Assembly: GCA_963723515.1 (NCBI GenBank)
Contig: CAVRQT010000003.1
Location: 320,001 to 384,000 of the forward strand
DNA from: Vulcanimicrobiota bacterium
GTDB taxonomy: Bacteria > Vulcanimicrobiota > Vulcanimicrobiia > Vulcanimicrobiales > Vulcanimicrobiaceae
Length of the DNA: 64,000 nt
Direction of reading: 5' to 3'
Shown here: positions 35,756 to 54,339 of the stretch, piece by piece
Numbering within the stretch: the first letter of the stretch is position 1
Layout of the letters: every line of letters starts with the position of its first letter
Notes under the pieces: model-generated
Told to the model about the DNA's origin: nothing
Databases searched by the model: none
Seen by the model: only the letters and a program-made list of their open reading frames with translations
Translations under genes and position numbers: made by a program

Positions 35756-37555
35756 ATGTTCACAAAGCAATTCCTGACCGGAGTGGCCTTCTTGGCAGGC
35801 CTTTTTGCGTGCCTGACGCTTTGTGTTTCGGCTGCGCCGGCTGGCACATCGCCCACCGTCCCATTGCCGCCGCCCTCCGGTGACGGCCTCATCTATTTGC
35901 ACCCGCAAGTTTTGCGTGACGGCACAAAGCGCTTCGACATTACGGCGAAAGTCGTCGATTGGGAAGTTACCAAAGGAACGACGGTCCGCGCTTGGACGTA
36001 CGACGGTGTCGTACCCGGGCCGGTCATCCGCGTGCGCGTCGGAGACCGCGTGCAACTGGTCGTTCACAATGAATTGCCGCAACCGACCGTCGTGCACTTG
36101 CACGGCTTGGTCACCGCAAACGATATGGACGGCGTGCCGGGCGTTTCGCAGATGCCGATCCAGCCGCATGGCGTCTTCACCTATCGATTCACCGCGGTTC
36201 GTCCCGGGACGTACATCTATCACACGCACTACAACGATTTGGATCAGCTCGATCGCGGCTTATACGGAGCCGTGATCATCGACGAGCGCCATCCACCCAA
36301 AGTCGACCACGATTATCTCGAAGTGATCTCGAGCTGGCGCATCCGCAGCGACGCGGAGAATTTCTTCTCGCTCAACGGTAAGTCGTATCCCGAAACGCAC
36401 GCCCTCGAAGTCAAGCGCGGCCAAACGATTCGGCTGCGGTTCATCGACATCAGCGGTACGGAATTTCATACGATGCACTTGCACGGTCACCGCATGCGGA
36501 TCATCGCGCGTGACGGTAATCCGGTGTTGACGCCCGACGTTGAAAACACGGTGATGATCGGCCCAGGGCAGACGATCGACACGCTGGTTAAAGCCGACGC
36601 CAATCCTGGAACGTGGCTGCTGCACTGCCATGTGCTCGATCACATGATGAACGGCAACGTGATGCCCGGCGGTCTGATAACGGCGCTCCACTACGAAGGA
36701 ACGCCCGATACGCTGGCGAGCCTCGATACGTCGATGGGCGGTTACTCGCACGGCTCGCGCGGTCAGCTTTCCTTTTGGACGACGATTTTGCTCGGCTGCA
36801 TCGCCGGGTTCACGATCTTCCTGGGACTGCCGGTCGCAAAATTGAGGCGCGTCGCGCCGCAGGTGATGTCTTTATTGAATTCGCTCGCGGTCGGCGTGCT
36901 GTTCTTCTTGCTCTTCGATGTCATCAAGCAGGCAACGGAGCCGATCGAGGATGCGTTGCGCACTGCGCAAACGGGCGGCGCGGATTACAACAACTTCGTA
37001 ACGCTCGTGATTGTCTTTGTGCTCGGCATCGCCATCGGCTTAGTGGGTCTTGTCTACGGCACGCGGTCTTTTATGCAGAGTGCGAAGGAAGGCGCGTCGC
37101 AGAATCCATTGATGCTTTCGCTCTTAATTGCGACCGGCATCGGGATGCACAACTTTGCCGAAGGGCTCGCGATCGGGCAATCGGCGGCAATCGGCGCAAT
37201 TCAGCTGGCGTTGATGCTGATCATTGGGTTCGGATTGCATAATGCAACCGAAGGTTTCGGAATAGCGGCGCCGCTTGTGCAGCTCCCCAGCGTGCGATGG
37301 CGATTCTTGTTGCTCGCGGGCTTCATCGGCGGCGCGCCGACGTTCATCGGAACGATCGTCGGCTATGTCCTGGTGTCGCCCACTCTGTCGGTGCTCTTCC
37401 TCACGCTCGCCGCGGGCGCGATCATCTTCGTAATCAGCGAGATGCTGCACGTGGCGCGTCGCGTGGGATTCGTGGAGGTCGGCGTCATCGGCCTCGCGCT
37501 CGGTTTCCTGTTCGCGTACGGCACGGATTTAATCATTACCGCGGCCGGCGCCTAA
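35756..37555 (+). CDS. Two-domain multicopper oxidase fused to a ZIP (ZupT-type) metal transporter
   Basis: Signal peptide; HLHG, YHTH, HTMHLHGH, HCHVLDHM; then TM domain with GMHNFAEG and GLHNATEG; single uninterrupted ORF. Confidence 0.9.
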   Translation: MFTKQFLTGVAFLAGLFACLTLCVSAAPAGTSPTVPLPPPSGDGLIYLHPQVLRDGTKRFDITAKVVDWEVTKGTTVRAWTYDGVVPGPVIRVRVGDRVQLVVHNELPQPTVVHLHGLVTANDMDGVPGVSQMPIQPHGVFTYRFTAVRPGTYIYHTHYNDLDQLDRGLYGAVIIDERHPPKVDHDYLEVISSWRIRSDAENFFSLNGKSYPETHALEVKRGQTIRLRFIDISGTEFHTMHLHGHRMRIIARDGNPVLTPDVENTVMIGPGQTIDTLVKADANPGTWLLHCHVLDHMMNGNVMPGGLITALHYEGTPDTLASLDTSMGGYSHGSRGQLSFWTTILLGCIAGFTIFLGLPVAKLRRVAPQVMSLLNSLAVGVLFFLLFDVIKQATEPIEDALRTAQTGGADYNNFVTLVIVFVLGIAIGLVGLVYGTRSFMQSAKEGASQNPLMLSLLIATGIGMHNFAEGLAIGQSAAIGAIQLALMLIIGFGLHNATEGFGIAAPLVQLPSVRWRFLLLAGFIGGAPTFIGTIVGYVLVSPTLSVLFLTLAAGAIIFVISEMLHVARRVGFVEVGVIGLALGFLFAYGTDLIITAAGA

Positions 37556-37568
37556 CAGTCACGGTTGA

Positions 37569-38122
37569 CTGTCACGCTTAGCTTGTCGAAGCGCCACCGT
37601 GATCGTGACTTGAATCACTGTCACGCTGAGCTCAGCCTGCCCTGAGCGGCGTCGAAACGTGAAGTGGAAGCGCCACCGTGATCGTGACTTTGAATCACTG
37701 TCACGCTGAGCTTGTCGAAGCGCCACCACAACGTGGCTCGCAATCACTGTCACGCTGAGCTTGTCGAAGCGCCACGGCGAGTGAAGGCTTCCACGGATGA
37801 AACCGTTCATCGTCCAATGCTGCGCTACTTCGAAGGGATTACTATTCGGAATGACCAGCCATATCGATGCGGTCGCGACATCGGAAGGCATTCACCGCAC
37901 GTATTATGAAGCTACTCCGCCGGCCAGTTAACTGCGTGTGGGCGGAGAGTTCAAATACGGTGCGGTCGACGCACTTCCGCTGTTCGCCGAGAAGCATTGA
38001 AAGGCTGTTCGCAATCGAAAGTAAGTCCCGTCGAAGTAGCGCGGCATATAGAAGCTGATTAAGTCGTTGCAACCGCAGCCGTCCCGATCGCGGTGGCGCT
38101 TCGACAAGCTCAGCGTGACAGT
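37569..38122. repeat. REP-like tandem copies plus an inverted copy, bracketing a palindromic interior
   Basis: Four forward ctgtcacgctgagcttgtcgaagcgccac-type copies (37569-37775), one reverse copy (38093-38122). Confidence 0.9.
37797..38060. pseudogene. Garbled GIY-YIG nuclease-like sequence visible on both strands
   Basis: + strand fragments MKPFIV / MLRYFEG / YY-GMTSHID / RRPVNCVW; - strand FYMPRYFDGTYF; resemble the YxLRCxDGxYYxGxT...RRPVxLV pattern of small GIY-YIG proteins. Confidence 0.55.
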
Positions 38123-38188
38123 GTGGCGACGGCGCCATCTCATCGTTGCCATAGCCGCGAGCGCCTAAGACGTTTGCGCGCGCGGTGC

Positions 38189-38899
38189 TTACAGGCCCGG
38201 CGGGAAGCTGTAGTTTGGTGGCGGGACGACCGGCGTGCCGACTTCGAGCGTGATTTGTTGGTGCGCGCGCAGCGGAATCTGCGCGAGGTCACCGTCGTAC
38301 TTCGCGCCGTTAATGAAGGCTGTCACTGGGCCGTTATACGGCCCGACCTCATCGCGGCGTAAATCCTCGCCCCAGATATCGAAGAAGTTGCCGAGCGTAT
38401 ATTGACGCAGCTCCGGCGACTCAACGTGAATGACGCCGCTGGGATCGTGAGTGTGGATCCAATAGAGGCATGCGCCGTTGTTGCTCGTGGGGACGATGCC
38501 GATGTACTGCGGGACCTGGATCTGCTTCCTGTTGTTGAAGATCGACAGATGCGAGTGAATGTGCATCGTCACTTGCTCCGTCGCTTCGCATTGAATCCCG
38601 TCGACCGCGCCGCCCGCGCCGCCGCCTTTGTTGTCTCCCGGCGCGAGCGCTAGTTTGCCGATGCCTTGATCGCTGAGTTGGATCGGTTTTTCACTGGCGT
38701 TCGGGCCGGGTGTCGGTGTCGCAACGGCGTTGGCAAAATCCTGATTTTGCTTGTAGCGTAACGCAGCAAAAGCGATGATGATCACGACGATGGCAATCCC
38801 TAACCCGAGATAGACCGTCCGCATCGGATCGCGACGAGGGGGTCTTTCTCCGGGTGATCCCGCGCGCGCTTGACGCCGGCGCTCCTGGCGCGAGCTCAC
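38189..38899 (-). CDS. Membrane-anchored hypothetical protein with putative metal-binding His motifs
   Basis: One TM; HIHSH, CLYWIHTHDPSGVIHVES. Confidence 0.8.
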   Translation of the reverse strand: MSSRQERRRQARAGSPGERPPRRDPMRTVYLGLGIAIVVIIIAFAALRYKQNQDFANAVATPTPGPNASEKPIQLSDQGIGKLALAPGDNKGGGAGGAVDGIQCEATEQVTMHIHSHLSIFNNRKQIQVPQYIGIVPTSNNGACLYWIHTHDPSGVIHVESPELRQYTLGNFFDIWGEDLRRDEVGPYNGPVTAFINGAKYDGDLAQIPLRAHQQITLEVGTPVVPPPNYSFPPGL

Positions 38900-39950: not shown

Positions 39951-39999
39951 AGCCTGCACTGAGCTTGTCGAACAGCCTGCACTGAGCTTGTCGAAGTGC
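39951..39999. repeat. Two tandem REP cores
   Basis: agcctgcactgagcttgtcgaa twice. Confidence 0.85.
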
Positions 40000-40037
40000 G
40001 TGAGGAGCGCTCCGCCATCGTGAGGAAAGCCACGCCG

Positions 40038-40913
40038 ATGCAATTGCAGCGCCGCCTCATTTGCGCGCTTCTCTTCATATTATGCGCTGCGTGCGCGAAT
40101 AGCGCTGCACCCCCGGCGAATGGAAAACCAGTCGTTGTGACGACGTTTTCGACGCTCGGTTCGCTGATTGAAATGGTCGGCGGCACGCGTCTTGACGTCG
40201 TAAACCTCGTTCCGGTGGGCAGTTCGCCCGAAGACTACCAGCCGACGCCGCAAGACGTCTCTCGTTTGCGATCGGCACGCCTGTTGATCGAGAACGGCGC
40301 GGGCATAGAGACATGGATTTCGCGTTTGATCGAAGGCGCGCGCAATCCGCAGCTGCAGATCTTGGTCTGCACCGACGGCTTGCCGGTGCATAATGGAAAT
40401 CCGCATCTCTGGATGGATCCGGTTCTCGCGCGCGCTTATGTTCGCAAGATCGAATCCGCGCTGGAACGCTTTGACCCCGCGGGGCGTGCCATCTACCGCG
40501 GTAACCTTCAGCGGGCGACCGCGCAGCTCGCGACGCTCGACCGCTCGGTGCGTGGGAAGATTGCGACGATTCCCGCGGCCAACCGAACGATGATCGTTTT
40601 TCATGACGCCTGGCACTATTACAACGACCGCTACGGTATTCGCACCGTTGGCGCAATCGAGCTATCGCCGGGACAGGAGCCGACGCCGCGCTATCTGGCA
40701 CAATTGATAGCCCTGGCCAAGCAGTTTCGCGTGCGCGCGATCTTTGCAGAGCCGGAATACAGCCCCAAACTCGCGCAGATGCTGGCTGAGAATAGCGGCA
40801 TCCAAACCGTCACCGATCTCTACGACGACTCCCTCGGAAACGATTCGCGCGTTCGCGATTACGTTAGCCTGATTTCTTATGACACCGACGTAATCGTGCG
40901 CGCCCTGAAGTAG
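40038..40913 (+). CDS. Zn/Mn ABC substrate-binding protein (TroA/PsaA/ZnuA family)
   Basis: Lipoprotein-like signal, NGAGIE, NPHLWMDP, FHDAWHY. Confidence 0.92.
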   Translation: MQLQRRLICALLFILCAACANSAAPPANGKPVVVTTFSTLGSLIEMVGGTRLDVVNLVPVGSSPEDYQPTPQDVSRLRSARLLIENGAGIETWISRLIEGARNPQLQILVCTDGLPVHNGNPHLWMDPVLARAYVRKIESALERFDPAGRAIYRGNLQRATAQLATLDRSVRGKIATIPAANRTMIVFHDAWHYYNDRYGIRTVGAIELSPGQEPTPRYLAQLIALAKQFRVRAIFAEPEYSPKLAQMLAENSGIQTVTDLYDDSLGNDSRVRDYVSLISYDTDVIVRALK

Positions 40914-41658
40914 ATGGCAGTCGCGGACGCGGTTTGGCTTCACGACGTGACGGTGGCCTATGACGGCGCCATCGGCATCGAGCGCGTCAGCCTCGTCTTG
41001 CATCCCGGTGAAGTGCTCGGCGTTATCGGACCGAATGGTTCGGGAAAATCGACGCTGCTTAAAACGATCGCCGGACTTGCTTCGGCCCGCACAGGGCACG
41101 GTTGAAGTGTTCGGTCGAGATCCGCATCATCTGAGTCCGGGAAGCATCGCCTACGTGCCGCAGGTTGAAACTGTGGACTGGAATTTTCCGGCTACCGTTT
41201 GGGACGTTGTTGCGATGTCTCGGTTTCCGCGCCTTTCGCCGCTGCAGCGGTTTTCCGTCGCCGATCGCACGTCCGTCAACGATGCACTGCGTGCCGTCGA
41301 CTTAGAAGCGCTTCGTGATCGTCATATCTCGGCGCTGAGCGGCGGACAGCAACAGCGCACGTTTTTGGCGCGCGCGCTGGCGCAAGAGCCGAAATTGTTC
41401 CTTTTGGATGAGCCCGCTACAGGCGTTGACGCCTCGACCGCCGAGATGCTGCGCATCGTCGTGCGCGATCTCGCCGGCAAAGGCATGCCGGTGCTGATTG
41501 CAACGCACGACCTCGAAAGTGCAGAGGCCTGGTTCGATTACCTGTTGCTCGTGGATAAGACGGTCGTCGCGTATGGGCGACCAAACGAAGTGCTCTGCTC
41601 CCCGGAATTCGAGCGGTTGCTCAGAGCGCACCATCACGCCGTTCGAGAGACGATCTAA
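40914..41658 (+). CDS. Zn/Mn ABC ATP-binding protein (frameshift near 41080)
   Basis: GPNGSGKSTL, YVPQ, LSGGQQQR, LDEP, THD. Confidence 0.9.
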
Positions 41659-42503
41659 TGGAGTGGCTGACGGCTCCCTTTCAGCTCGATTTCATGATCC
41701 GCGGCTTTATCGTCGCGATTCTCGTCGGCACGCTCTGCTCGTTGATCGGCGCTTTCGTCGTTTTGCGACGGCTGGCGTTCATCGGCGACGGCATCGCTCA
41801 CGCGTCGTTCGCCGGAATCGTCATTGCGTATCTCCGAGGCGCGAACTTCTATCTAGGCGCCGCCGTTGTTGCCGTTCTCACCGCGCTGGGCATCGGTTTC
41901 GTCCATCGTAAAGCGAACATTTCGCTCGACACCAGCATCGGCGTGCTGTTCACCGGCGCCTTCGCGCTCGGAATTTTTTTGATGAGCCGCCAGCGCACGT
42001 ACACCGTCGATCTCCAGGACTACCTCTTTGGAAATATCCTCGGCGTCTCGCATCAAGATCTGGTTCTGATCGTGCTGCTCTGCGCGCTAGTCGCGCTCAC
42101 GTTAACCTTTTTCTTTCGCGCGCTCGTGTACACATCGTTCGATCCCGTCGTGGCTGAGGCGAGCGGAATCCCGGCCGGCGGGCTCGATTATCTGCTGCTC
42201 GTTTTGCTTGCGTTAACGATTGTCGTGACCTTAGAGGCCGTCGGTATCATCCTGGTCGCGGCGCTGCTTGTAACGCCGGCTGCCGCCGCCTACCAACTGA
42301 CGCGCCGTTTTTCCGTCATGATTGCTCTCTCAGCGGTGCTGGGCGCGTTTTGCTCGGTCAGCGGCCTTTATCTTTCCTATTATTTGAACGCGGCAAGCGG
42401 GGCAACGATCGTCTTGATGGCGACGATCGTTTTCTTTGCGGCGATTGCGATTAAGCGGTTGTGGCTGGGCGGCTCCGCTCAGGCGCGGTCCAACCGCCCG
42501 TGA
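41658..42503 (+). CDS. Zn/Mn ABC permease
   Basis: GDGIAHA, YLFGNIL, SFDP...G, PAAAA. Confidence 0.93.
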   Translation: MEWLTAPFQLDFMIRGFIVAILVGTLCSLIGAFVVLRRLAFIGDGIAHASFAGIVIAYLRGANFYLGAAVVAVLTALGIGFVHRKANISLDTSIGVLFTGAFALGIFLMSRQRTYTVDLQDYLFGNILGVSHQDLVLIVLLCALVALTLTFFFRALVYTSFDPVVAEASGIPAGGLDYLLLVLLALTIVVTLEAVGIILVAALLVTPAAAAYQLTRRFSVMIALSAVLGAFCSVSGLYLSYYLNAASGATIVLMATIVFFAAIAIKRLWLGGSAQARSNRP

Positions 42504-53377: not shown

Positions 53378-54339
53378 GCGCGTTCATCGGTCTGTCACGC
53401 TGAGTTTATCGAAGCGCCACGACAACGGTTGCCCTTCGACTAGCTCAGGGTGACAGCGACGTTATCGCCACTTCGCTGGTACCGCGTTCATTGATCTGTC
53501 ACACTGAGTTTATCGAAGCGCAATCGTAATCGCTTAGGAGGCGTTCATTGATCTGTCACGCTGAGTTTATCGAAACGCAACGATAACGGTTGCCCTTCGA
53601 CAAGCTCAGGGTGACAGTGGCGTTATGATCGCGTGCTTGGTGCGCGTTCATTGATCTGTCACGCTGAGTTTATCGAAACGCAACGATAACGGTTGCCCTT
53701 CGATGCTTCGGCGCTGCTCAGCACAGGCTGAGCTCAGGTGACAGTGGCGTTATGATCGCGTGCTTAGTGCGCGTTCATCGATCTGTCACGCTGAGTTTAT
53801 CGAAGCGCCACCGTAATCTCGCTTGGTGCGCGTTCATTGATCTGTCACGCTGAGTTTATCGAAGCGCCACCGTAATCTCCATTAGTGCGCGTTCATTGAT
53901 CTGTCACGCTGAGTTTATCGAAGCGCCACGATAAGGGTCGCCCTTCGATGCTTCGGCGCTGCTCAGCACAGGCTGAGCTCAGGGTGACAGTGGCGTTATG
54001 ATCGCGTGCTTAGTGCGCGTTCATTCATCGTGTCACACTAGTTTATCGAAGCGCCACCGTAATCTCCGTTAGTGCGCGTTCACCAATCTGTCACGCTGAG
54101 TTTATCGAAGCGCCACGATAAGGGTTGCCCTTCGATGCTTCGGCGCTGCTCAGCACAGGCTGAGCTCAGGGTGACAGTGGCGTTATGATCGCGTGCTTAG
54201 TGCGCGTTCATCGATCTGTCACGCTGAGTTTATCGAAGCGCCACGATAACGGTTGCCCTTCGATGCTTCGGCGCTGCTCAGCACAGGCTGAGCTCAGGGT
54301 GACAGTGGCGTTATGATTGCGTGATTAGTGCGCGTTCAT
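53378..54339. repeat. BIME-like mosaic REP array (10 forward, 6 reverse cores)
   Basis: Units start (tta)gtgcgcgttcat-Nga-tctgtcacgctgagtttatcgaagcg; ~59-bp short units and ~103-128-bp long units. Confidence 0.95.

Follow-up and report, generated by a model that had tools for sequence, protein, structure and literature searches.

A gene-sized palindrome between inverted REPs in a Vulcanimicrobiaceae assembly: most likely a consensus of a small GIY-YIG gene and its reverse complement

INTRODUCTION

How does an intergenic segment come to be complementary to itself over the length of a gene? Such a segment lies between two inverted REPs in the window (the whole 64,000-nucleotide stretch of DNA analysed here). 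A preliminary description of it offered three explanations: a small GIY-YIG gene that flips between the REPs, so that the consensus blends both orientations; a real head-to-head duplication, since decayed; or a fold-back read artefact. The window belongs to contig C3 of an assembly (G000, the source assembly) of four contigs and 2.1 Mb, estimated as 88% complete. A single genome of the same genus (G001) was compared, together with more distant relatives.

RESULTS

The palindrome and its surroundings

The features of the locus are as follows.

35756..37555, + strand: left neighbour, an intact protein of 599 aa that combines a multicopper oxidase with a ZIP-like membrane part, facing the cassette
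37568..37727, + strand: small BIME-like cluster of direct REP copies upstream of the cassette (copies at 37569-37594 and 37698-37723, partial copy at 37616-37632)
37745..37780, + strand: left (innermost) REP arm, a TGTC-tagged hairpin repeat, from a repeat search
37781..38087, no strand: interior, 307 nt, likely an assembly consensus of a GIY-YIG gene of about 95 codons and its own reverse complement (from profile and simulation)
37797..38020, + strand: GIY-YIG gene trace that starts with the ATG at 37797 and follows profile nt 1-225 of 279 colinearly, with many 1-3 nt indels (71.7 bits)
37925..37934, no strand: symmetry centre CAGTTAACTG, which falls in RRPV-L, a conserved part of the gene profile
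37959..38052, − strand: second gene trace, of the same type but limited to the 5′ part (profile nt 17-114, 35.1 bits)
38088..38123, − strand: right REP arm, in the opposite orientation to the left one and 97% complementary to it over 36 nt
38189..38899, − strand: right neighbour, an intact 236-aa membrane-anchored protein with no Pfam match over the cut-off, facing the cassette

The right arm is also fully complementary (100% over 32 nt) to the upstream copy at 37696-37727. The preliminary description held the segment to be self-complementary around CAGTTAACTG, and this is borne out both by aligning its halves and by folding. When the left half of the interior is aligned to the right half in reverse complement, 120 of 172 columns are identical (about 70%) and the score is 51, against −48.6 ± 10.6 for 300 base shuffles (maximum −16). 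The palindrome is predicted to fold as DNA at −125.6 kcal/mol (z = −15.5), and none of 100 shuffles was as low. The internal match quoted in that description is likewise present, at 37817-37838 and 38026-38047. The longest perfect run between the arms is only 12 nt, and indels of 1-3 nt are dense.

The interior is single-copy in the source assembly. No close DNA relative of it was found among the collected loci, where the best matching pieces are 28-59 nt long, and no exact 22-nt word from it occurs in the metagenome contigs. The neighbouring genes are in good order. Against their G001 orthologues the left neighbour has no gaps in 1650 aligned columns and the right neighbour none in 711, making 0 in 2361 columns together, compared with 18 gap events between the palindrome arms. 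The damage is therefore local to the interior. The fusion of multicopper oxidase and ZIP-like domains (35756-37555) is conserved in G001, and the nearby genes at 39996-42503 are presumably of an ABC metal-uptake type.

Traces of a GIY-YIG gene on both strands

The preliminary description read broken N-terminal GIY-YIG motifs in the translations of both arms, and proposed a search with the Pfam model PF01541. None of the five translated frames of the segment matched this model. A six-frame search of the source assembly for GIY-YIG genes gave no candidate at the palindrome, and nhmmer on the interior found a 5′ signal only, with nothing from a model of the C-terminal half. We therefore give the similarity at the DNA level, where an indel-tolerant aligner was used with a profile of 279 nt made from 30 homologous GIY-YIG genes. 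By this route the GIY-YIG similarity stands, and on the + strand it is not confined to the N-terminal motif, since it runs colinearly through most of the profile. The − strand trace has z = 8.0 against 40 dinucleotide shuffles, and the profile gave at most 26.4 bits on the reverse complements of the 30 real genes. There was no profile signal on the − strand of the left arm, and the C-half model on the right arm alone scored 26.5 bits, while the highest of 40 shuffles reached 27.3.

Two further tests of the C-terminal part used 39 genes and 120 simulated fold-back duplications. Extending the alignment past the centre of symmetry gained 23.5 bits, compared with a maximum of 16.5 in the simulations, and the best path through both strands scored 45.7 bits with the C-half model, compared with a maximum of 33.5. 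Each strand holds pieces that are absent from the other, which is what a mixture of a gene and its reverse complement should give.

The gene family and the repeat

The same source assembly contains an intact paralogue of 100 aa (C3:290985-291284) between inverted REPs. Its arms are perfect over 29 nt and its interior is not blended. The protein scores 53.8 bits against PF01541 (curated cut-off 22.6) and has no NCBIfam match. Of 201 genomes of the order, 104 have homologues of it; two sister families (21 and 4 genomes) gave no member of the clade. The single-domain proteins of the clade are 93-100 aa long, and Y7, Y17, R27, H31 and E65, which we take to be the catalytic residues of the GIY-YIG core, are invariant in all 14 aligned members. 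The best PDB matches are the UPF0213 proteins 1ZG2 and 1YWL. Intact REP-flanked copies, which the preliminary description had suggested looking for, are thus present here and in related genomes. The association is a real one: 93 of 143 loci have convergent REPs by the pattern used, which misses variant repeats.

The TGTC-tagged REP has 109 matches in the 2.1-Mb assembly (with up to 4 mismatches in 26 nt). It is predicted to fold with a 4-bp outer stem and an 11-nt inner part at about −3 kcal/mol. The stem positions covary among copies, as CG/CGC (31 copies), CC/GGC (25), CA/TGT (13) and TG/CAT (9).

Other repeats were seen in passing. A BIME-like array at C3:373392-374241 (53392-54241 in the window) has about 12 REP copies with a TTTAT loop variant and repeated spacers. 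An inverted repeat of about 75 nt at C2:562301-562658, unrelated to the REP, has a long near-perfect core and encloses about 200 nt. A second family in the source assembly consists of imperfect hairpins of about 170-190 nt with a common asymmetric core, MITE- or REPIN-like, in at least six copies:

C2:114333-114519
C2:165214-165388
C3:55657-55821
C3:260966-261148
C3:620399-620566
C3:931115-931278

Orientation in related genomes

Loci around homologues of the family were collected, and the direction of the gene was compared with both flanks. In a first pass over 119 loci, 11 of 15 common sites held the cassette in both orientations. In the enlarged census of 143 loci this was true of 14 of 19 syntenic sites, with 106 pairs in the same orientation and 71 in opposite orientations. 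One unpublished genome (G022) contributed a single gene to the profile, the first census and the tree, and is omitted from the 143-locus counts; none of the conclusions rests on it.

In six close opposite pairs the flanks are colinear, while the gene and the adjoining REP sequence are inverted, at about 71-88% DNA identity. The breakpoints of the inversions fall within REPs. A quick tree with SH-aLRT support only, covering 107 of 119 rows (frameshifted or distant rows were omitted), contains four clades, each from one site, that have both orientations, with support of 99, 100, 96 and 95. These are therefore read as in-place inversions of one lineage, and not as separate insertions. Four opposite pairs are on contigs longer than 500 kb in both genomes (L099/L135, L139/L153, L113/L150 and L022/L027), and in the last of these the perfect arms are just 13-18 nt long, which together argue against short-read misjoins. 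Genome comparison thus shows in-place inversion of the REP-bounded GIY-YIG cassette across the bacterial family, and to this extent the earlier idea of a gene flipping between inverted REPs holds.

A GIY-YIG paralogue lacking REPs, used as a control, gave 198 same and no opposite pairs, although these come from two sites only and are therefore not independent. Among disjoint pairs the ratio of same to opposite was 3:0 at 92% protein identity or more, 6:4 at 75-92%, and 10:11 below that. This points to an orientation that is heritable at short range, with occasional flips that randomise it with distance. Since the closest relatives do not differ in orientation, flipping is likely to be occasional and not a rapid switch. 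For the more distant pairs, replacement is another possibility.

No site with both orientations was seen in the distant family of G372 (0 of 4 sites), or in three Sphingobium and two Shinella replicons (five plasmid records, two sites), and all six metagenome-only pairs have the same orientation. In the family of G372, the small GIY-YIG genes of L314, L317, L318, L323, L326, L328, L332 and L333 appear by eye to adjoin tRNA-like sequence.

Exchange of cargo

At the orthologous site in G001 the same two convergent REPs enclose an unrelated ORF of 184 aa (L005:2297-2851, on contig G001:C142). It has a signal-peptide-like start, no NCBIfam match and no homologue in the source assembly. The site holds a short spacer in G013 and other genes in G004. 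REP pairs may be slots for exchangeable cargo. The cassettes L100 and L104 are 91% identical in protein and have no flank in common, so that close homologues do occur at unrelated sites. In G147, three related cassettes on contig C9 (L021, L096 and L062) group as a clade (support 99), and 2.3 kb separates two of them, a pattern that on sequence grounds suggests recent local spread. A comparison for homogenisation of the arms gave 0.67 within and 0.63 between.

The REPs also enclose other genes. One of them, a housekeeping gene that we take to be ComF-like (C3:1046735-1047355), is boxed by convergent REP clusters and is not flipped. All relatives in which a flank matches (25 downstream, 16 upstream) have it in the same orientation.

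Simulation of a blended consensus

Bubble-wise blends of 12 real cassettes with their reverse complements have an arm identity of 0.65-0.71, with 22-26 mismatches and on average 12-14 gap events. A simulated decayed fold-back, with an assumed indel share of 10%, has 38.5 ± 5 mismatches and 5 ± 2 gaps. In the same comparison the observed arms have an identity of 0.66 and 26 mismatches, with 18 gap events, more than the means of the blends.

A partial-order consensus was also made from 6 forward and 6 inverted simulated noisy reads. It gave hybrids in 6 of 6 runs, with an arm identity of 0.71-0.83 and profile scores of 80-124 bits forward, 27-79 reverse and 99-145 for the union. The observed scores are 72, 37 and 128 bits respectively, and the observed arm identity of 0.66 is below the simulated range. 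When 7 or more of the 12 reads had one orientation, the intact gene was returned in 24 of 24 runs. Because this simplified consensus blends at an exact tie only, the blend reading needs a near-even mix or low coverage. The fit of the simulations is good, though not exact.

No second blend was found. The other GIY-YIG interiors (37 of 37) are not self-complementary; 46 REP-bracketed interiors contain none, apart from a gene-less one of 164 nt; the 119 loci have isolated frameshifts only; and the other long convergent REP interiors of the source assembly are not blended. Out of 17 long palindromes listed for this assembly, the 11 that were aligned are all repeat families or REP clusters.

We conclude that, most likely, the palindrome does not exist as a DNA molecule and that one small GIY-YIG gene was merged with its reverse complement in the assembly consensus; it would then be an artefact, though an informative one. 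Among the three original options, a consensus that blends two orientations fits best, while the decayed head-to-head duplication fails the C-terminal test.

DISCUSSION

A possible mechanism

We think it probable that the palindrome blends a GIY-YIG gene whose two orientations were about equally common between inverted REPs, and suggest that the inversion may be driven by a nick made by the nuclease followed by host repair. By analogy with SsnA, the nuclease would nick single-stranded DNA beside its own REP hairpin. The host would repair the nick on the opposite arm, by a template switch or a crossover between the two REPs, and the interior would in this way be inverted. If the partner were a REP pair at another site, or one carried on incoming DNA, this step would relocate or exchange the cargo. 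GIY-YIG enzymes to our knowledge form no covalent link to DNA and cannot rejoin strands, and host repair would therefore have to finish any move. Neither a serine recombinase (PF00239) nor a Y1 transposase (PF01797) was found in the source assembly (88% complete), and its two tyrosine recombinases (PF00589) are distant from the cassette, at C3:682 kb and on C1. It is a bolder suggestion, and an unlikely one, that a UPF0213-like GIY-YIG nuclease, by nicking the REP hairpins on its own flanks, inverts, moves and exchanges REP-bounded cassettes with no recombinase involved, the assembly having caught the population in mid-flip at 50:50.

Other explanations

The blend and the inversion could both be real with the nuclease as a passenger, the orientation being set by host recombination, by template switching between convergent REPs, or by replacement with incoming REP-bounded cargo. 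We regard this as somewhat unlikely, yet as a serious rival. Exchange of cargo would account for the genes at site S0, which come from several tree branches (7 changes for 7 rows), and for the other cargo that G001 carries at the orthologous site, and a gene between two convergent neighbours is tolerated in either direction. The REP-bracketed ComF-like gene nevertheless keeps its orientation, although it is a single example and might be kept in place by selection on an operon. A technical origin, in which cells carry one orientation only and the inverted molecules come from library amplification or read correction, is improbable. That the palindrome is the sole blend among the loci examined, and that a ratio near 50:50 is required, would both suit it, but the intact paralogue and the other long convergent REP interiors of the same assembly are unblended, and both orientations occur as clean sequence in relatives.

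The remaining explanations take the palindrome to be real DNA. A dead gene might have become a long REPIN-like hairpin through repeated template-switch conversion between its halves. The fold is indeed very stable, and the genome does contain other real hairpins, about 170 nt long and in several copies. Conversion should however leave long perfect tracts, in place of short runs and dense small indels, and the interior is single-copy, with no such trend in the 37 related interiors, so that we consider this quite improbable. Least credible of all is the idea that the gene's 5′ half was duplicated head to head and has since decayed. Both arms do carry the 5′ part on opposite strands, as it predicts, but the C-terminal signal is above all 120 fold-back simulations, and these simulations have too many mismatches and too few gaps to match the observed arms.

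Implications

The presence of both orientations at 14 of 19 sites offers a simple read-out for testing whether hairpin-associated GIY-YIG nucleases rearrange DNA. There is also a practical trap: where a consensus merges both orientations, the result can be a palindrome of gene size in which annotation misses the gene. If the bolder suggestion above is true, CGTC REPs would have their missing mobiliser in such nucleases, which would also give rise to invertons that need no invertase. Palindromic blends in assemblies of long reads would then be markers of active cassettes.

Comparison with known systems

The cassette resembles the invertons and programmed inversions described in PMC10028968 and PMC9881135, in that a segment between short inverted repeats occurs in both orientations. 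It differs from them, as they are set out there, in having no invertase nearby and in having multi-copy REPs as its repeats, a class that was discarded in PMC9881135; the orientations here are also compared between genomes and not within a clone.

The repeat itself is like the CGTC-tagged REPs (Di Nocera et al., 2013, PMC3733652), of which four families are described, with an 8-9 bp stem, a 4-5 nt loop and no transposase. Both have a terminal CGTC/TGTC tag and a short hairpin, are multi-copy, occur as intergenic dimers and clusters, and have no associated Y1 transposase. Going by that account, the present repeat differs in its shorter stem and large internal loop, which depart from the 8-9 bp stem and 4-5 nt loop, and in having a GIY-YIG gene as recurrent partner. 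As in the REP/REPIN-RAYT systems (REPtrons) outlined in the same paper, a nuclease gene is boxed by inverted REPs that are amplified genome-wide, except that the enzyme here is a GIY-YIG hydrolase and not an HUH/Y1 enzyme.

The closest parallel is with the Ssn nucleases (SsnA, cd10448; Chenal et al., 2025, PMC11893778), which according to the main text of that paper form repeat-ssnA-repeat units with NTS/SRM hairpin repeats, SsnA cutting ssDNA beside its hairpin. In both cases a single-domain GIY-YIG gene (here about 95 codons, and below 150 aa) is flanked by a directional hairpin repeat that is scattered genome-wide, and the repeat begins (C/T)GTC. The SRM pattern, as given there, is absent at our locus even with one mismatch, and is found within 500 nt at 4 of 119 loci; the source assembly has 9 scattered matches. 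The present clade is instead nearest to the UPF0213 structures 1ZG2 and 1YWL, and would cleave ssDNA by analogy with SsnA. Because it fails the SRM motif and is closest to UPF0213, we describe it as Ssn-like in its putative mode of working, yet do not file it under Ssn.

The preliminary description gave the nuclease the role that RAYT plays for classical REPs. This idea is already in print for the Ssn branch: the Discussion of PMC11893778 draws the analogy with IS200/IS605-REP/BIME, with a mobile-element role put forward as a hypothesis. The word "inversion" is absent from the main text of that paper, and the literature searched, which took in few subscription papers, gave no report of such REP/GIY-YIG cassettes inverting. 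The pairing of a hairpin repeat with a GIY-YIG gene, including the RAYT analogy, is thus known in kind from the published Ssn work, and the part that appears to be new, and apparently undescribed, is the flipping of such cassettes in place.
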